From Tolypothrix carrinoi HA7290-LM1 (GTDB lineage: Bacteria; Cyanobacteriota; Cyanobacteriia; Cyanobacteriales; Nostocaceae): a stretch of 64,000 bases of DNA. Both the position numbers and the translations under genes were made by a program. Shown piece by piece: positions 1-10,824 of this stretch. Within the stretch, counting starts at the first letter, position 1; every line of letters starts with the position of its first letter. A model generated the notes under the pieces. The model ran no database searches. It saw only the letters and a program-made list of their open reading frames with translations, and was not told where the DNA came from. The stretch covers positions 1 through 64,000 of the forward strand of contig JAHHIK010000031.1 in the NCBI GenBank assembly GCA_019358935.1, read 5' to 3'.

Positions 1-410
1 CGGCTATTACCGGAACTCCATAGACAATTCCAAAGTACTCTAGCCATTCTCGAAACCTGTACCATGCAGCGTCAGATATTGACTTGGCAAGACAGTGGTT
101 TTTAATCATGTTACGCACTTTTAGGTTCTCAATCGCTACCAAGTCGCGCTTACTGGATGACGCGCTGGGCTAATTTACAAACCCAATTCGTAAGTCTGCG
201 TGACACCTTAAGATGCGACGGCGCTCTATGTGCGGACGCAGGTTCCGCACCCGCTTTTCCTCTACCTAATTTATTTCTAGCTTTGGCTCTATTCTTTCCA
301 TGTTTTTGAGTTTTAGATAAACATCGCTGTAGTCGTTTAATCTTACGTTCATCTTTCCTCAAGAACCTAGGATTATCAACTTTTTCACCGAAGCTGTTCG
401 TGTAGAAATG
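1..410 (-). pseudogene. tnpB: tnpB 3' exon (about 42-nt palindromic insertion and a frameshift near 150; truncated by window edge)
   Basis: Reads HFYTNSFGEKVDNPRFLRKDERKIKRLQR...KARNKLGR[insert]HLKVSR...VIQ*, then in a shifted frame DLVAIENLKVRNMIKNHCLAKSISDAAWYRFREWLEY (RuvC-II region). It is in frame with exon 1 across the intron. Confidence 0.85.
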
Positions 411-3013
411 GTTAACCTAAGTATGGGAGTTGCCCCCCATACTCGGCTCCAAAACCGTGCTTGATATTTTCACATCACACGGCTCCTCAGTGTATGGCTA
501 GCGCATGCAGCTTGCGCCATCCCCTTTTTGCAGGAATTTTACTTTTGACTTTATTCACCCATTCGTCATATTCTTTTCCTTTTAAGGAATGGAGTTGGTC
601 GTGACAATGTAGGTGAAGTAATGCCATATTCTCATCTGAGTTGTTTCCACCTTTTCCTTTCGGGTTTAGATGGTGTTTTTCCAGATTATCTTCTGGCATG
701 AATTTGAGTCCGCAATACGCACAATCCCCTTTTTGCCTTTCAAATAACCTGGCTTTTTGAGGTTCGAGGACTTTATAATTGTCCCCGATGCGCGTACTCC
801 AATATGCCCAATCGCCGTCGTATGGAGAGCGGGTTCCCTCCACTTTTACCCATTTAACACTTGCTGGAAATTCTGGGTGTTTGAGTAAAACGAGGGGGTT
901 TTTTCCCGACCTGGATGTGCTGAAACTCCAGTTATCGCCTTTGACGTTTCTAAAGTATTTTCTGCTAATCCAGTTTCTATTCTTATTAGGATGACGACTT
1001 TTTGCCCATCTCCAGAGTTTGTTCCACATTAGGTTCTTGACTTTTCCGAATGTGACTTTGGAGTGCCAGGGAGATTGGTAGTTACACCATCCCCTGATGA
1101 TTGGATTTAACTTTGTTATCATGCCTGCAACGCAGTCACCTTTAAAGTGGTCAATCCAATTAACTAGCTCTTGGTAGTGGGCTTTTATCTTTTCTGGGCT
1201 TGGCTTGATGATGGTTTTAAAACCTAGTTTTTCCTTGGAGTTAGGGGATTTTCCTGAGTGGTGTTTACCAACTTTATATTGTCGGATATTGAACCCCAGG
1301 AAATTGAAGCCTGGTGACTCTTTTCCTAACTCATTGAGAGAATGAGCTAGTCGGGTTTTACTGGGTTTGAGTTCTAATCCGATGTCTTTTAGCCACAAAG
1401 CTATTATTTCCTGACATCTTTGAACGATGGATAGTTCTTCGCATAGAATCACGAAATCGTCTGCGTAGCGAATGAGTCTTGGGACTCCAATCTGGCGTTT
1501 GAAGGTTTTGAAACCTCCAATCCACCGACCTTTTTTATCGCTTGGGAATTCGTTTTCTATGCAGGCTTCCATTCCGTGTAAGGCTATGTTTGCCAACAAA
1601 GGAGATATAACTCCACCCTGTGGCGTTCCCTCTGATGTCGGGTCATATCCTTTCCGTCCTGCCCAAGAGCTAAAGTCTATAACTCCCGCCTTGAGCCACG
1701 CTTTAATTTGGCGTTTAAAGGCAGGAAAGGTATTTAATTTTTCCAGTAGCTTTGTGTGGCTAATCTTGTCGAAGCACTTCGCAATATCCGCATCAAGCAC
1801 GTATTTTGACTTTTTGTTGATACTGTTAAATATTGCAGCGACAGCATCGTGACATGACCTCCCTGGTCTAAAACCATAACTGTTTGGCTCAAAAACTGCC
1901 TCCCATTCTGGTTCTAGAGCTAGTTTTAGTAGCATTTGCTTCGCTCTATCCTGTATGGTTGGGATTCCTAGAGGTCGCATTTCCTTCTTACCCGGTTTGG
2001 GTATCCAAACTCGGCGTACAGGTTTTGCTTTCCCGTCTATTTTCAGGTTTTCTATTAGCTCAAACCGTTCCTTTGGGGATAGGGATTTTACCCCATCTAC
2101 TCCTGCGGTTTTCTTGCCCTTGTTTTCCTGTGTCACCCTTCTGGTGGCTAGTAGCTTTGCATACCAGGATTTAGCCATCATCTTCTGGAGCTTGCGGACA
2201 AGCTTTTTGTCCCCACTTTTTGAGGCGCGATAAATTCTATGAGTGAGCTTAAATACCCGTCGCTCAATCTTTTTCCAGTTTAGTTCACGCCAGTTTAACG
2301 TGACGTTTTCACAGACCAAGACTGGTGTATCGTCGGATAGCCATTCCAACCTCTCAAATTTATTCAATTCAAGGGCATTAGACATATATACTCTTACTTT
2401 AAGAACGTATCTTCCATACAGCAGGTGGACTTTCGGCTTATCCAATGTCCATTACAGACAGGCTTTTGCTTATTTCCACATCCCTGACAGGGGTGATTTC
2501 TTACGCGAGTCACTGCTCTGGGATTCGACTTATCCAAGAGAACCCTCCCCCGTCTTGACTCGTTCCTGTCTACCGTTGTTACTAACTTTAGGGTCTTCCA
2601 CTCCACCGGATTTTGGTTTGTGTCGATAGTCAATTGAATAGTTGCTATCTACCATTCTCTTGAGCATGTTTCGCTCCCTGCGTAACAGCCAGATTTCGCA
2701 GGTTCGTAGTAACGATGGTTTAACGGAAGTTCATTTTCATTACCCATAGTCAAATGCTCCCAGCGTCACCACTTTAGGCTTGTAGCTTATCTGGTTTTCC
2801 CCCAGCTTCGATTCTGGCGTATCCTATACTCTCCATAGTCGTGAGGGATGCTGTCACTCGGACACTGCGAGGGATGGACTTTCACCATCACGGATAGACA
2901 AGTTTTCTTGGTTTCAGGAGATTTCTAGGGTACTTCCTCCTTTCCCTATTGACGGTGGGTTACACCGTGAGGGGAGTTTTGGGACTAACCCTGGCTTCCC
3001 CAACGAGCCGCAC
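411..3013 (-). mobile_element. Group II intron (2603 nt) with internal RT ORF
   Basis: 5' end GTGCG at 3013. Domain V GAGCCGTGTGATGTGAAAATATCAAGCACGGTTTT lies at about 485-451, followed by a domain VI hairpin ending AAC at 411. Removal rejoins tnpB GLDVGLN|HFYTNS in frame. Confidence 0.93.
487..2385 (-). CDS. ltrA: Group II intron reverse transcriptase/maturase with C-terminal HNH endonuclease
   Basis: N-terminal WKKIERRVFKL..RIYRAS, TAGVDG, RPLGIPTIQDRA, GFRPGRS, GTPQGGVISPLLANI, YADD, maturase LNPIIRGWCNY, and CAYC...HH...GG...N..LLHLHCHDQLH. Start taken at the MSNALE ATG; the ORF is open to 2445. Confidence 0.95.
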   Translation of the reverse strand: MSNALELNKFERLEWLSDDTPVLVCENVTLNWRELNWKKIERRVFKLTHRIYRASKSGDKKLVRKLQKMMAKSWYAKLLATRRVTQENKGKKTAGVDGVKSLSPKERFELIENLKIDGKAKPVRRVWIPKPGKKEMRPLGIPTIQDRAKQMLLKLALEPEWEAVFEPNSYGFRPGRSCHDAVAAIFNSINKKSKYVLDADIAKCFDKISHTKLLEKLNTFPAFKRQIKAWLKAGVIDFSSWAGRKGYDPTSEGTPQGGVISPLLANIALHGMEACIENEFPSDKKGRWIGGFKTFKRQIGVPRLIRYADDFVILCEELSIVQRCQEIIALWLKDIGLELKPSKTRLAHSLNELGKESPGFNFLGFNIRQYKVGKHHSGKSPNSKEKLGFKTIIKPSPEKIKAHYQELVNWIDHFKGDCVAGMITKLNPIIRGWCNYQSPWHSKVTFGKVKNLMWNKLWRWAKSRHPNKNRNWISRKYFRNVKGDNWSFSTSRSGKNPLVLLKHPEFPASVKWVKVEGTRSPYDGDWAYWSTRIGDNYKVLEPQKARLFERQKGDCAYCGLKFMPEDNLEKHHLNPKGKGGNNSDENMALLHLHCHDQLHSLKGKEYDEWVNKVKSKIPAKRGWRKLHALAIH

Positions 3014-3596
3014 ATTTAAACCTACATCCAAGCCAATTTGTCTTTGAGTTAGTTCTTTATTCTCCTCTCGCTTGTGGTCAATCAAAAACTGCGCGTAATA
3101 GCCATCATGTCGCCTAACAACTCTGATTCGTTTAATTTGGTCAAGTTGGTAATAGTGCAGGTTTCTAGTTCCCCAAAGCTTAAATACACCAGCTTTAAAG
3201 CCATCTGTGAATTCTAGATAGCGCTTATCAACTGATAGCTTCCATCCAGAAACTTTATATTCCACCGACGCTCTAAGAAGCTGTTTCTTGAAATTGGGAA
3301 AACCAATATAACCCTTAACTTGAGAAGAGCAGTTACGGTAGAACCTCGATTGGGCCTGCCCAAGCCCTTTCGGCATGGGCTTGTCGTGCTTGAGAGTTTA
3401 GCAGCCGTGCCCAAGGAAACTCTGCGTTGTCGGCTAAAACTTTGCAGTATTTGTATGCGTCATTGCGACTTTTGACTAATCCATCTATCCAAGCCCGAAT
3501 AATAGAATTTCGCACAAAAAGACCAGTACGGATGGCGTTGTCTAGCCGCTCGTACTGGCTTTTGGTTCCTTCTAATTTGGACTCGTAGATAATCAT
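3014..3596 (-). pseudogene. tnpB: tnpB RNA-guided endonuclease, 5' exon (frameshift near 3350-3360)
   Basis: MIIYESKLEG...LNSQARQAHAERAW, then a frame change to SRFYRNC...GFPNFKK...SVEYKVSGWKLS...RVVRRHDGYYAQF...IGLDVGLN (RuvC-I motif), ending at the intron 5' GTGCG. Confidence 0.85.
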
Positions 3597-3679
3597 CTTA
3601 TCGTTATGACTTACGATAATATTGTAGCACAAGAAAGAAAAGTCGTCCTAGAAGGACGAGGCTTTTACCCATTTTTTCG

Positions 3680-6600
3680 GTAAAAATGCCAGTTTGAATG
3701 TTGGTGGCTCATTTCTGGCAAGTACAGCTAGTAGTCTGAAATTTGCTGATGGTTTTGAGTTTAGTGCAACTGCTCGACAAAGCACACCCTTGCTAACCAT
3801 CAGCGTTCCCATTGGTTTGCAATTTGGAGCGAATCCGGGAAGCATCCAAAATCAATCTGTTGCAACTAATAGTAACGGTGAAAGTGTTGGTCTTCAAGTC
3901 GAGCCAGGAAAAACCTTAGCCTTGGTGGGTGGTGAGGTGAGATTGGATGGTGGGTTGTTGCAAGCTGCAAATGGTCGAGTCGAGTTGGCAGGAGTAGCTG
4001 GTTCAGGAACGGTAAATCTTCAAGTTAATAATAACAATCTTTCCTTAAGTTTTCCTGTAGATATACCAAGAGCAGATGTATCCCTATTAAACGCTGCTAA
4101 AGTTGATGTGACTGGTAATGGTGCGGGTAGTGTAGGAATTACAGCCCGTTCCATTGATATTTTGGGAGGTAGCAAGATTTCTGCTGGATTAAACAAAGAA
4201 GCGGGAATTGCCTCTGTGCCAGGAAATATTACGCTCAATGCTACAGGGGTAGTAACAATCGATCAATTGAGCAGAATAACCAATATGAGTGCTCTTGGTA
4301 CTACGGCTAATGCGGGTAACATCAGTATTCAAGCAGGTGATATTTTCGTCGATAATCGGGCTACTGTTCCCGATGGAAATGAGATTTTTGCAGCACTAGA
4401 TACAAGTAGCAATGGACAGGGACGTGCCGGAAATGTATCACTCTCTGCTACTTTTGAAATTACTTTAATTGGGGAGAGTGCCAACATTCAGGATAAAGTG
4501 ATATCTACCTACGGCAGCCAAGGACTCGGAGGTGGAGATATATCACTCTCTGCTGCTGGCTCTATTTTATTATCCAATGCTTATCTGCTAGCTGGCGGTG
4601 GAAAAGCAAATGGGGGAAACATATCACTACTTGGTAACAATGTATCCATAACTGATAATAGCTCGTTAATAACCGGAACTGGTGGAGGAAATGCAGGAAA
4701 TATTACAATCAAATCGCCTGGTAATGTCTCTATCAAACGTAGCTTGGTTTCGACTAACGTTGGTAGCGATCTCAAAGTTAATGCTGGTGATATCAACATA
4801 AGCGGACGTTCTGTTTCTGTAACTGAGGGGGCAGAATTAACAGCTAGATTGTCTAGGGGTAGTGGAAAAGCCGGAAATATTTCGATTAACGCTGTTGATA
4901 AAGTGGAAATATCAGGCAACGATCCATTTCATAAGATGGGTGGCGATCCACTAAAAGCGACTTCGGGGGCGGTGATATCATGGTTAATGCCAAAGTCGTT
5001 GAGCTTTTTGATGGCGGACAAATTCTCACGACTGCTCGAAGTAGGGGTAATGCGGGTAACATCTTCCTTAAGGTACGTGACAATATCGTGTTATCAGGCA
5101 CTAACCCAAATTATGCCGACGATCCACCTAGATTTAACAGAAGAGTGGAAGCAGTTAGCGCTAGTAGTGGTTTATTTGCAAATACTGAAGCTGGAAGTTC
5201 AGGTAATGGTGGCACTATAGAAATTAACTCAACCATCCTTAGCATTAATAACAAAGCAAGTATTGGAATTAATAGTTCAGGTCAAGGTAGTGCTGGAGGA
5301 TTTTTAAACATAAATGCTGGTGATTCAATTACTCTTGCCAATGGCTTTATTACCAGTGGCTTGGGTAGTCAGGCAATCGGTCAGGGAGGTGAAATCAATC
5401 TGAATGCTGGTGAGCTCTCTCTCACCAATAACAGTCAAATTACTGCTCAAAGTGGGGGAACAGGTAATGCAGGCAACATTAATATTGATGCTTCAACTTT
5501 TGATGCAGTTAGTGGGGGCAAATTACTAACCACCACATCTGGTAGTGGAAATGCCGGAAATATTAGTGTTAATGTAGGCGATCGCTTTTCCCTATCCGTA
5601 CAGGTACTGGTTTACTTGCAAATACTGCTTTTGTCAGTTCCGGCAATGGCGGCAGTATAGAAATTAACTCAACCATCCTTAGCATTAATAATGGCGCAAG
5701 TATTGGAATTAATAGTTCAGGTCAAGGTAGTGCCGGAAGATTTTTAAACATAAATGCTGGTGATTCAATTACTCTTGCCAATGGCTTTATTACCAGTGGC
5801 TTGGGTAGTCAGGCAATCGGTCAGGGAGGTGAAATCAATCTGAATGCTGGTGAGCTCTCTCTCACTAATAACAGTCAAATTACTGCTCAAAGTGGGGGAA
5901 CAGGTAATGCAGGCAACATTAATATTGATGCTTCAACTTTTGATGCAGTTAGTGGGGGCAAACTACAAACCACCACATTTGGTAGTGGAAATGCCGGAAA
6001 TATTAATGTTAATGTAGGCGATCGCTTCTCCCTTTCTGGTACAGGTACTGGTTTATTTGCAAATACTGAAGCAGGAAGTTCAGGTAATGGTGGCAGTATT
6101 TTCATCGACCCCAGAACTGTGGTAATTGAAAATGGCGCAGGAGTGACTGTAGGCAGTCAAGGCACTGGAATTGGTGGTAACATTCAGATTCAAGCAGACA
6201 GTTTGAAGTTAGATAACGCAGCTTTTCTATCAGCAGAAACCGCTAGCACCCTTGGTGGTAACATTGAAATTCAAAATGAGGGCTTGCTGCTTTTACGCCG
6301 CAACAGTCAGATATCTACCAATGCAGGCAGAGGACAAGGTGGTGGAGACGGGGGTAATATCACCATCAATTCTCCCAATGGCTTCATCGTCGCCGTACCT
6401 AATGAAGATAGCGACATCAGCGCCAATGCTTTCACCGGTTCTGGAGGTAGAGTTAATATTACAGCAACTGGGATTTATGGCATTGAGTCTCGCCCACGCC
6501 CAACTGACTTAAGTGACATTACTGCTAGTTCTACTCTTGGGGTACAAGGCACTATAGAAATCAACACGCCCTATGTTGACCCCAGCAGGGGGTTATTGCA

Positions 6601-6940
6601 ACTGCCCGCAGGTGTAGTAAATACCCCAGCACTAATTGCCTCTAACTGTAGCGCATTTGACGAGGAAGGTGCTACCTTCCTCGTTACCGGACGCGGTGGT
6701 TTACCCCCCAGTCCTGACGATTTCCTTAGTAATGACGTTGTTTGGACTGATACTCGCCTGAGCGCGACTACAACACAAAATCCATCCCGGACACCTGCGG
6801 CTAAACTAAGCATACCAAAAGTGGAAATTGTACCTGCTACGGGTTGGGTGTTTAATGGTAAAGGGGAGGTAACGCTTATCTCTTCAGCGTCTGACGCTAC
6901 AGCTAGTGTGTCTGTTCCTACTTGCGCCAACAAAGAGTGA
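3680..6940 (+). pseudogene. Filamentous haemagglutinin-family (TPS-like) exoprotein, IS-interrupted and frameshifted (near 4960 and 5595)
   Basis: Three consecutive ORF pieces (3694-5220, 4980-5660, 5801-6940) carry GNAGNI beta-helix repeats and the conserved C-terminus (SDISANAFTGSGGRV...TGRGGLPPSPDD...PATGWVFNGKGEVTL). The N-terminus is cut off by the IS. Confidence 0.85.
5200..6080 (+). repeat. Near-identical tandem duplication (about 440-bp period) inside the haemagglutinin pseudogene
   Basis: AAATTAACTCAACCATCCTTAGCATTAATA occurs at 5221 and 5661, and the following sequence is nearly identical. Confidence 0.9.
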
Positions 6941-7404: not shown

Positions 7405-10400
7405 ATGTCCGGCTTTGGAATTACTAGTTGGAGCGCTTTGTTAGGTATTGCGATTGTGTTATGTGGAAATTACGCTAATGCTCAAATTACACCAGATGGC
7501 ACTCTTCCCAATAATTCCAACATTAGTAAGATAGGCAACACCTTTAACATCACACAAGGAACGCAAGCTGGAAGTAACTTATTTCACAGTTTCCAACAAT
7601 TTTCTGTCCCTACTAGTGGCACTGCTTTCTTCAACAATGCTCTTGACATTCAAAACATTATTAGTCGGGTAACAGGTGGGTCAATCTCTAATATTGATGG
7701 TTTGATTCGTGCTAACGGTGCGGCTAACCTATTTTTAATCAACCCGTCGGGGATTGTTTTCGGACCTAATGCCCGTTTGAATGTTGGCGGTTCAATTCTA
7801 GCAAGTACAGCTAGTAGTTTCAACTTTGCTGATGGTACTACATTTAGTGCTACTGCGCCGAAATCAACACCTTTGCTGACTATTAGCGTTCCGATTGGTT
7901 TGCAATTTGGACAGAATCCGGCAAATATCCAACTGCAAGGATCTATATTACAAGGCGCACCTAATAAAACCTTAGGTCTTGTAGGCGGGAATTTAAGCTT
8001 AGATAATAGTATTTTACAAATTCCAGGCGGTCGAGTGGAGTTGGGCAGTGTCGGAAACAGCGGTACTGTTGGACTGAATGTTAATGGCAGTGACCTGAGT
8101 TTGAATTTTCCCAATGGAATAGGCAAGCAAGACGTATCTTTAAGTAATCGAACTAATGTCAATGTACTTGCAGGCGGAGGTGGTAGTATTGCCATCAATG
8201 CTCGCAATTTGAATATTTCTGGAGCCGGTACAGAAATACGAGCCGGTATAGCGTCAGAGTTGGGTTCACCCCAAAGCAAAGCAGGAAATATAGAAATTAA
8301 TGCAACAGAGGCGATAATTGACGATGGGAGTCTTGTATCCAATGCGATACAAGCTAATGCTGTAGGTCAGGGAAGCGACATCATCATCAAAACTGGGTCG
8401 CTCAAAGTCAGCAACGGTGCGAGGATTGAAACTAGTTCCTTTGGTCAGGGGAATGCAGGGAATCTTCTGATTGATGCTCAAGGGCAAGTTAGTTTCATTA
8501 ATCGAGCTTTAGGTTTCACCACTTTAGAAGCAACAGGTGTGGGCAATGGTGGTAATTTACAAATTCAGGCTGGGTCTGTATTAGTTACAAATAACTCCCG
8601 ATTAAGAGCTAGCACTTTGGGTCTAGGGAATTCAGGCAATGTGATTATTAATGCCCGTGATACTGCCGAGTTTACCGATGGAGCCTTTGTCTTTAGCCAA
8701 GTAGAAGCAGGAGGTATCGGTAATGGTGGTGAAACGAGTATAACCACAGGTTCTCTCTCAGTAACCAATGGTGCTATTTTGACTGCGAGTACTGTTGGCA
8801 AGGGGGATGCAGGTAGAATAAATATAGAAGCCCGCGATACGGCATCTTTTAATAGAGGTGGTGCAGCCTTTACGACTGTAGAAGCAGACGGGATCGGTAA
8901 TGGGAATGATCTGCGAATTAGGGCTAGGTCGCTTTCTGTTACCGATGGATCTTTTTTGACAGCAAATACCTTGGGTCGAGGAAATGCAGGCAATGTGATT
9001 ATTGAAGCAGGTGATGTCCTGTTTGATAGAGGGAGTGCCACAAGTAGCGTGGGATTACAGGGGTTTGGCGTAGGGGAAGGCAATGGTGGTACGATTAGCA
9101 TTTCCACCGGCTCACTGCAACTGGCTAATCAGGCTCAATTGCTTGTCAACAGCTATGGCAGAGAAGGAAATGCAGGTAATATTAACATAAATGCCCGTGA
9201 TACCGTCTCCTTATCTGACCAGAGTTTTATCTTCAGCCAGCTAGGAGGAGGAATACGAGGCGCTGCGGGTAACATCGACATTAGCACAGGCTCGCTTCAG
9301 GTTGCTAGCGGCTCGGTTATCAGTACTGACACTTTTGGAAATGGGAATGGCGGTAATATCACGATAAAAGCACGAGATGCTGTCTCCTTTTTGACTGAGG
9401 GAGGAGCTTACAGTCTTGTGCAATTAGGGGCAATTGGTAATGGTGGTGATATCAACATTAGTACCGGCTCATTAAATACTGCTGATGGGTCTTTTTTAGC
9501 AGCTAGCACCTTAGGAAGCGGAAATTCAGGCAATGTCAGGATTACAGCCACTGATTCTATTTCTTTAGAAGGAGTGAATCGAAATAAATTTCCTGGTGGG
9601 ATTTACAGCGAAGTCGCAATAGGAGAATCAGGTGAGGGGGGCAACATTGATATCAAGACGCGATCGCTCACAGTCAAAAATGGCGCTCGTTTAGCTACAG
9701 ATACCGATGGTAGAGGAGATGCAGGCAGTATAAATATTGATGCGACTGATTTTGTCACTTTTGATGGCATTGGTAGCAATCAGCTGATAAGTGGTGCATA
9801 CAGCCAAGTCTCTCCAAATGGAAGAGGCAATGCTAACAATATCAACATTACTACCAGAAATCTGTCCTTAAGTAATGGCGCTATATTAACTGCCGGTACT
9901 CGTGGACAAGGAAATGCAGCCACGATTAATATTAATGCCACTGACTCTGTAACGATTTCTGGGACTGCTTCCAGTAGAAGTAACACTCTTGTTGGTGAAA
10001 GTACAGCAATTCCCAGTGATATTAGTGGTGTGTTTGTTCAATCAGAAAGTACAGGAAGGGCAGGAGATATTATAGTTACCTCTCCAAAAATTAACTTGGA
10101 CAACCAAGGAAGGTTGATTGCAAAATCTGAATCAGGTAATGGTGGCAATATCAACTTACAAGTAGGAGACTTACTGCTGCTGCGTGGTGGCAGTCAAATC
10201 TCTACTAACGCAGGTACTGCACGACAAGGTGGAGACGGTGGTAATATCATTATTGATGCCCCCAATGGCTTTATCGTCGCCGTACCTAATGAAAATAGCG
10301 ACATCACCGCCAATGCTTTTACAGGTTCTGGAGGTAGAGTTAATATTACAGTAAGTGGAATTTATGGCATTGAGTCTCGTCCACGCCCAACTGACTTAAG

Positions 10401-10824
10401 TGACATTACTGCTAGTTCTGAACTTGGGGTACAAGGTACTATTGAAATCAACACGCCCAATGTTGACCCGAATCGAGGATTATTGCAACTGACCACAGGT
10501 TTGGTAAATACTCCAAGGCTGGTTGACTCTAGCTGTGCCGCTTTTGACAAGAATGGTAGCGAATTTATTGTCACCGGACGCGGTGGTTTACCTCTTAGCC
10601 CTGACGATTTTCTTAGCAGTGACGTTGTTTGGACAGATTCTCGCCTAAGTGCCGCTACTGCACAAAATCAATCTCGGACACCTGCGGCTAAACTAAGCAT
10701 ACCAAAAGCTGTGGAAATTGTCCCTGCTACAGGTTGGGTGTTTAATGGTAAAGGGGAAGTAACGCTTATTTCTTCTGCGTCTGTTGCTAATAGTTTGGTG
10801 TCTGTTCCTAGTTGCGCTAAATAG
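7405..10824 (+). CDS. Filamentous haemagglutinin N-terminal (TPS/haemagglutination activity) domain exoprotein, intact
   Basis: Signal peptide ending ANA|QITPDGTL, NLFHSFQQFSVP, NIISRVTGG, LFLINPSGIVFG, many GNAGNI repeats, conserved cyanobacterial C-terminus. GGAGGGAG RBS upstream. Confidence 0.92.
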   Translation: MSGFGITSWSALLGIAIVLCGNYANAQITPDGTLPNNSNISKIGNTFNITQGTQAGSNLFHSFQQFSVPTSGTAFFNNALDIQNIISRVTGGSISNIDGLIRANGAANLFLINPSGIVFGPNARLNVGGSILASTASSFNFADGTTFSATAPKSTPLLTISVPIGLQFGQNPANIQLQGSILQGAPNKTLGLVGGNLSLDNSILQIPGGRVELGSVGNSGTVGLNVNGSDLSLNFPNGIGKQDVSLSNRTNVNVLAGGGGSIAINARNLNISGAGTEIRAGIASELGSPQSKAGNIEINATEAIIDDGSLVSNAIQANAVGQGSDIIIKTGSLKVSNGARIETSSFGQGNAGNLLIDAQGQVSFINRALGFTTLEATGVGNGGNLQIQAGSVLVTNNSRLRASTLGLGNSGNVIINARDTAEFTDGAFVFSQVEAGGIGNGGETSITTGSLSVTNGAILTASTVGKGDAGRINIEARDTASFNRGGAAFTTVEADGIGNGNDLRIRARSLSVTDGSFLTANTLGRGNAGNVIIEAGDVLFDRGSATSSVGLQGFGVGEGNGGTISISTGSLQLANQAQLLVNSYGREGNAGNININARDTVSLSDQSFIFSQLGGGIRGAAGNIDISTGSLQVASGSVISTDTFGNGNGGNITIKARDAVSFLTEGGAYSLVQLGAIGNGGDINISTGSLNTADGSFLAASTLGSGNSGNVRITATDSISLEGVNRNKFPGGIYSEVAIGESGEGGNIDIKTRSLTVKNGARLATDTDGRGDAGSINIDATDFVTFDGIGSNQLISGAYSQVSPNGRGNANNINITTRNLSLSNGAILTAGTRGQGNAATININATDSVTISGTASSRSNTLVGESTAIPSDISGVFVQSESTGRAGDIIVTSPKINLDNQGRLIAKSESGNGGNINLQVGDLLLLRGGSQISTNAGTARQGGDGGNIIIDAPNGFIVAVPNENSDITANAFTGSGGRVNITVSGIYGIESRPRPTDLSDITASSELGVQGTIEINTPNVDPNRGLLQLTTGLVNTPRLVDSSCAAFDKNGSEFIVTGRGGLPLSPDDFLSSDVVWTDSRLSAATAQNQSRTPAAKLSIPKAVEIVPATGWVFNGKGEVTLISSASVANSLVSVPSCAK

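Follow-up and report, generated by a model that had tools for sequence, protein, structure and literature searches.

A group II intron of IIB type splits a tnpB gene in the genome of Tolypothrix carrinoi HA7290-LM1, in frame and just after the catalytic aspartate of the RuvC-I motif, and the split gene belongs in turn to a tnpB-only IS200/IS605 element. The window analyzed here is the whole stretch of 64,000 nt at the start of contig C31 of this genome (G000; 7.96 Mb in 184 contigs). We consider it likely that the intron, which encodes a reverse transcriptase (RT), entered by retrohoming through its three exon-binding sites (EBS1, EBS2, and EBS3), with tnpB serving as a landing pad. The window copy itself, judged from its reading frames, gates no TnpB activity.

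The intron spans 2603 nt on the minus strand (411..3013), from a 5' GTGCG at 3013 to a 3' AAC (...GTTAAC) at 411, both read from the sequence, and its bulged A lies 8 nt upstream of the 3' end. Joining the exons at 3014/410 gives QIGLDVGLN followed by HFYTNSFGEKV in a single frame, so the host frame is restored locally; these are the ends, and this is the in-frame split between GLDVGLN and HFYTNS, that the initial annotation had described. Domains V and VI (411..487, minus strand) match Rfam RF00029 at 48.3 bits against a cut-off, the gathering score, of 40, and the ends of the GUGYG/AY form, the AGC triad of domain V, and the bulged A of domain VI are all present. A single open reading frame (ORF; 487..2385, minus strand) encodes a protein of 632 amino acids from an ATG at 2385, or of 652 amino acids from the alternative start that the ORF finder chose, a TTG at 2445. 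RT, maturase, and HNH domains all lie within this ORF (Pfam RVT_N, RVT_1, GIIM, and HNH), the YADD motif of the RT is visible in the translation, and the frame is intact, in agreement with the intact RT-maturase-HNH ORF noted earlier. Introns of subgroup IIB carry EBS1, EBS2, and EBS3. The present intron, with three predicted exon-binding sites, fits this subgroup, as does the position of its bulged A. The single-strand fold of domain I within the intron is unremarkable (z -1.5) and was used solely for the local hairpin considered below.

To locate the exon-binding sites, 127 intron/exon pairs were reduced to 120 by removal of duplicates and aligned over their first 520 nt; each column of the window intron was then scored for how well the other 119 introns pair there with their respective exons. 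For exon positions -6 to -1 this unbiased scan peaks at ATTCAA (AUUCAA, 2634..2639, minus strand; intron nt 375), with a mean of 4.85 of 6 pairs over the 119 relatives against a maximum of 3.21 across five exon shuffles. The same hexamer had been proposed as EBS1, within a stem at 2625-2649, and the RNA fold contains the 2625-2649 hairpin; the predicted EBS1 forms five of six pairs with the intron-binding site IBS1, TTAAAT, the exception being one C-A mismatch. The scan of positions -13 to -8 adds EBS2, peaking at ACTACG (ACUACG, 2705..2710, minus strand; intron nt 304) with a mean of 4.76 against at most 3.34 in the shuffles; its score with IBS2 is 4.5 of 6 (four Watson-Crick pairs and one wobble). 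A second EBS2 candidate, at intron nt 228-233, is likewise complementary to this exon, yet its scan value of 3.4 is about the shuffle ceiling, and nt 304 is preferred. The putative EBS3 is a G at 2601 (minus strand; intron nt 413) that pairs with C, the first base of the 3' exon; in the +1 scan this column pairs in 81 of 100 relatives, where 30.6 are expected. IBS2 (TGTAGG, 3026-3021) and IBS1 (3019-3014), together 3014..3026 on the minus strand, encode D-V-G-L-N of the RuvC-I motif. The totals at the window site (EBS1 5/6, EBS2 4.5/6, EBS3 1/1) are equaled or exceeded at 919 of 15.9 million genomic positions; tnpB-like DNA holds five of these, where about 2.6 would be expected. EBS pairing alone is thus not selective for tnpB, and any real preference would have to come from upstream protein contacts or from selection after insertion.

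The tnpB gene that receives the intron is decayed, as had been noted. Its 5' exon (3014..3596, minus strand, ATG at 3596) has a frameshift near 3345-3357 in an alignment to the intact paralogue on contig C22 (76% nucleotide identity). Its middle exon, about codons 195-334 (1..410, minus strand), contains a 42-nt insert (218-259) and is frameshifted near 146-151 before it runs off the contig. The RuvC motifs of tnpB are recognizable in the element, with this copy frameshifted; the fragment matches OrfB_IS605 at E 1.2e-6, just under the curated cut-off. The insert is in frame, forms a 7-bp hairpin, and has a short flanking repeat. A sister copy of tnpB lacks it, and a search of the source genome with a 42-nt query overlapping it (204-245) yielded no further copy. 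An assembly of sequencing run X1 matches 417-4500 and 166-385 without differences, which makes it unlikely that the 3345-3357 frameshift and the 42-nt insert are assembler errors, with the qualification that X1 possibly holds the same reads as the source assembly and would then be no independent confirmation; runs X2, X3, and X5 gave merely short or divergent pieces matching the locus. The X1 assembly also contains the sister tnpB, in which the RuvC-I site is empty and the 42-nt insert is missing, and in which one IBS2 base differs, breaking one EBS2 pair (read by hand).

The left end of the element, with a subterminal hairpin at 3659-3643, lies at 3643..3679 (minus strand) and is common to copies on C22, C34, and C86; the DNA fold of 3630-3690 has a z of -4.9. 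The target motif TTAC (3680..3683, minus strand) precedes the left end here as it does in those three copies. Insertion 3' of a motif of 4-5 nt without duplication, subterminal hairpins (z -4.9 and -3.5), and a right end at TCAA on contig C65 all place the element in the IS200/IS605 family. The initial annotation had drawn an IS605-type element out to 3690: the IS200/IS605-type end stands, the boundary moves to 3679, after TTAC, and no tnpA belongs to the element, the interval from the left end to tnpB being free of ORFs. Of the seven matches to the TnpA profile Y1_Tnp in the genome, none is on C31 or C65. This is a tnpB-only IS200/IS605 element, outside the strict IS605 group, whose members have their own tnpA. 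No sigma-70 promoter was found by a scan of 3500-3760. Short non-coding elements at C34:44600-45200 and C86:35600-36200 share this TTAC left end, have a right end of the IS605 type, and contain no intact tnpB.

The element interrupts a TPS-domain (filamentous haemagglutinin-like) gene, whose 3' part resumes at G-K-N-A-S-L-N and runs in several frames through 3680..6940 on the plus strand. The window begins at a contig end, where this outer layer is not visible in full; its proposal in the initial annotation is borne out by C65, by relatives, and by a bridging contig. The 5' half of the gene is at the end of C65, where it abuts the right end (TCAA) of the IS; two of 25 TPS-domain tblastn matches are partial, and these two are the N-half on C65 and the C-half on C31. 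Both halves map to one intact gene in the same-genus genomes G284, G401, and G403, with the same gap. Compared with G284, the host gene lacks 94 nt beside the left end of the IS. The lost segment lies between the GTAA of the expected insertion site and a point downstream at which a GTAA-like sequence is present in relatives; its loss could represent an adjacent deletion driven by TnpA, with two TTAC motifs as its borders. Elsewhere in this region, window positions 5030-6000 hold an internal near-duplication of about 500 nt in the haemagglutinin-like gene, with several frameshifts, and a complete haemagglutinin-like paralogue follows at 7405-10824.

A 2887-nt contig of the X1 assembly, at twice single-copy depth, overlaps window positions 1-140 with one of its ends and the end of C65 with the other, in consistent orientation. 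The end of C65 is the 3' end of a group II intron fused to ENAALNIL, at the RuvC-III position, so that the tnpB of the window very likely holds two introns, one at RuvC-I and one at RuvC-III; the second would be about 2.7 kb long. The bridge is a two-copy sequence whose other exit is C93, and the pairing of C31 with C65 rather than with C93 relies on the synteny of the host gene. The RuvC-III type of intron (inserted between DRD and ENAA) is seen at C65:48405-48507 (L170) and C93:1-103 (L171), and is common to two IS copies. The two copies share a block, the RuvC-III intron with about 200 nt of upstream exon, that was collapsed as one sequence, and are about 13-17% different outside it, which looks more like homing with co-conversion, or gene conversion, than co-transposition.

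These layers suggest an order of events. The IS, mobilized in trans by a TnpA encoded elsewhere in the genome, would have landed after TTAC in the haemagglutinin-like gene, and the 94 nt beside its left end would then have been lost. One intron would have entered tnpB at RuvC-III and the window intron at RuvC-I, the latter probably by ordinary retrohoming guided by the predicted EBS1, EBS2, and EBS3, and the gene would have gained its frameshifts. To such an intron tnpB may offer a landing pad that is dispensable, transcribed, and present in many copies; cyanobacterial introns of this group appear to have been retargeted frequently and to have ended repeatedly in IS200/IS605 DNA.

The initial annotation had pointed to IS genes as frequent intron targets, and in this genome introns occupy tnpB heavily. 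Of 23 intron 3' ends found with Rfam, 11 have a tnpB 3' exon, while tnpB-like DNA makes up 0.57% of the sequence. Counted as distinct domain V/VI sequences, six of 17 have such an exon, at reference codons 194, about 235, 249, 281, 326, and 354. Beyond the source genome, 160 related loci were considered: 80 were the best among 271 in genomes, and 80 the best among 232 in metagenomes. Of the 160, 142 have at least 100 nt of flank. In this sample of best-scoring loci, 29 of the 142, or 22 of 92 clusters at 90% protein identity, lie inside tnpB, counting the doubtful L017 and L003, which has a 3' flank only. Conserved tnpB columns hold no excess of insertions (p 0.37 for 17 distinct positions in an alignment of 31 rows, which measures protein, not DNA, conservation).

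One intron end is present in five copies in the source genome (C27 start, C123 end, C146 end, C151 start, and C6 end); four of the five are at tnpB codon 281, just past the ENL..NL of RuvC-II, in hosts that are 52-58% alike, and one is in non-tnpB DNA. A frameshifted tnpB at C84:116-2739 (L172) also has two introns, the first between KYEDI and SNARR at codon 249 and the second starting after STKTC at codon 326; this second intron probably continues on C66:48169-48246 (SSCGH). By eye, nine further related introns appear to be in the terminal hairpins of IS200/IS605 ends (L058, L068, L072, L111, L112, L131, L136, L138, and L152), and one clade of such introns is near the window intron in the FastTree tree only. 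At C180:8554-8630 an intron 3' end is followed by an HNH/IscB-like exon (KWNRKCSYC...EHIHPK).

The window intron is a single copy in the source genome. No close relative was found at E<=1e-100 in 400 genomes of the phylum, none of its domains I-III at E<=1e-30 in 300 genomes of the family, and no match covering 80% of it among 72,556 plasmids; its own target range therefore rests on one site. A junction pattern of RuvC-I codons followed by the intron start, which requires a Gly codon and would miss a site of the L009 type, has no true case in 400 other genomes; the only match outside the window in the 401 genomes, L163, is ordinary coding sequence with no intron. The same tnpB bond is used by three of the 142 flanked loci, all in Scytonema NIES-4073 (L007-L009). 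The three introns are 100% identical and follow GVDLGLK, GLDLGLE, and GLDLVLE in tnpB hosts that are 50-75% alike, which implies separate homing events. The Scytonema intron is 63% alike to the window intron at the nucleotide level and has an EBS1 of its own, TTCTAG. Monophyly of the window and Scytonema introns is rejected (p-AU 4.85e-6; membership of the group had been fixed by insertion site ahead of any tree, but the FastTree result was already known when the test was run), and the shared bond is most simply explained by convergence, with at least two separate intron lineages having reached it.

In the protein tree (38 hand-chosen rows of 161; the full set was analyzed by FastTree), the window intron falls in a clade of seven rows (support 100/98) with L001, L002, L003, L084, and two introns inside RT genes. 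Of its nearest kin, L001 (L001:2352-4936) is at tnpB codon 201, seven codons downstream of the site used by the window intron, L003 is at about tnpB codon 21, and L002 has no flanks. L001 and L002, two of the three closest kin at about 67% protein identity, come from records titled Vulcanimicrobiota and Methanobacterium, which reflects either horizontal transfer or a binning error. The near kin L010, L085, and L086 are twintrons, each in the RT gene belonging to a second group II intron, between (P/H)(N/H)SYGF and RPGR.

Against this background the initial proposal that the intron specializes in the RuvC-I motif of tnpB holds in part. In its strict form, the intron RNA and protein would recognize the G-x-D-x-G-L-x codons and hop among divergent tnpB genes. 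The three predicted EBS do match codons of the motif, Scytonema NIES-4073 shows that such a specialist exists at the identical bond, and one has been published at another tnpB site (PMC4810608, Fig. S9, in the part of that paper covered here). The trait does not extend to the lineage of the window intron, whose nearest kin are at other tnpB codons or in RT genes, and conserved columns are not favored. Intron-free tnpB copies, for which the initial annotation had suggested a search, are found in the genome: 35 other tnpB-like matches span the RuvC-I region, all of them empty, and this, with the single intron copy and the lack of a true junction match in 400 other genomes, speaks against a strict specialist. 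In the 33 whose motif could be read, EBS1+EBS2 scores reach at most 8.5 of 12, against 9.5 at the occupied site. We put strict specialization at somewhat below even; for this one intron it is compatible with retrohoming into tnpB as a landing pad. Alternatively, a single ectopic retrotransposition event could have placed the intron in a near-cognate site, its true home being another gene with TTGAAT and tnpB being merely tolerant. The EBS1 mismatch, the 919 positions that pair as well or better, three near kin in the RT genes of other introns, and L084, in a flank with no assigned gene, would suit such an event; however, L001 and L003, the two of the closest three kin with flanks, are both in tnpB, an independent lineage occupies the identical bond, and tnpB, about 0.6% of the genome, hosts about half of the intron ends. 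We regard an ectopic event as improbable.

A further reading makes tnpB an actively targeted niche, in which separate lineages evolve through EBS and protein changes onto a few bonds near RuvC catalytic residues (RuvC-I here and in Scytonema, a post-RuvC-II bond, and RuvC-III), stack two to a gene, and are copied from one IS paralogue to another along with the exon DNA upstream, with repair of TnpB cuts or single-stranded IS intermediates as possible aids. This is unlikely, if a little less so than an ectopic event; were it true, intact intron-bearing elements would have splicing-gated TnpB. Least credible, and in our estimate very improbable, is a functional composite of the IStron kind, where TnpB would be switched on by splicing and the intron would travel with the IS. 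Local restoration of the frame by the predicted splicing and the sharing of the RuvC-III intron by two IS copies would agree with it. The composite is already contradicted for the window copy: with tnpB frameshifted both upstream and downstream of the intron, splicing-gated TnpB is impossible here, so the proposed dependence of TnpB expression on splicing fails, and the proposed hitchhiking on IS605 elements finds no support in an intron that is single-copy. In addition, the IS extends beyond the intron on both sides, so the host gene would stay unrepaired after splicing, and the divergence of the two RuvC-III-bearing IS copies outside their shared segment also counts against joint spread. Retrohoming into tnpB as a landing pad remains the preferred explanation.

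Targeting of tnpB by introns in cyanobacteria is already published, in the portions of the literature covered here. RT-HNH group II introns insert into IS605 transposons, and an RT-maturase-HNH intron is present in the tnpB of IS605-1_CC and IS605B-1_CC of Coleofasciculus chthonoplastes PCC 7420 (Kapitonov, Makarova, and Koonin, 2016; PMC4810608, Fig. S9). Like the window intron it is an RT-GIIM-HNH intron of about 2.5 kb in the orientation of tnpB, and it is described as site-specific in divergent cyanobacterial tnpB genes; unlike the window intron it is inserted between EQQ and NC/SL at amino acids 50/51, the same motif as at locus L005, and not at RuvC-I. The text of that paper covered here contains no EBS analysis, convergent site, or doubly invaded tnpB. 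Family F4 introns of Thermosynechococcus elongatus use a conserved site in ISEL1, of the IS200 family (Mohr, Ghanem, and Lambowitz, 2010; PMC2882425), and resemble the present case in their cyanobacterial host, IS200-family target, retargeting by divergence of specificity, and twintrons; they differ in that many lack an ORF and that the passages covered do not place their site in tnpB. Group II introns of classes CL1 and CL2, among others, have been described as "hiding" in mobile elements, where they co-localize with transposases as well as with other introns (Waldern et al., 2020; PMC7306698), in a neighborhood survey whose covered portion leaves tnpB positions unspecified. IStrons likewise join an intron and IS605/tnpB in one element, but these are group I introns whose ends coincide with those of the IS, so that the whole element splices out (PMC4227781; 10.1101/2023.11.20.567912, as far as covered). 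The window element is not an IStron: no group I intron bounds the IS, the intron inside tnpB is of group II and encodes its own RT, and the host gene stays broken. The parts covered of PMC4853749, PMC7923331, and PMC13565253 contain nothing on introns inside tnpB, and neither the RuvC-I site, nor two-lineage convergence, nor double invasion of tnpB came up in searches of open-licence papers.

What the present locus adds is the apparent convergence of two lineages on the bond beside the RuvC-I aspartate and tnpB genes with two introns (the window locus and C84/C66). Together these form a set of natural cases on which targeting of tnpB by introns could be told apart from mere survival there, a distinction that bears on the proposal, in the covered part of PMC4810608, that the entry of an intron HNH into a TnpB-like gene gave rise to IscB/Cas9. 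Such introns also break tnpB annotation and assemblies; in the source genome most intron copies are at contig ends.
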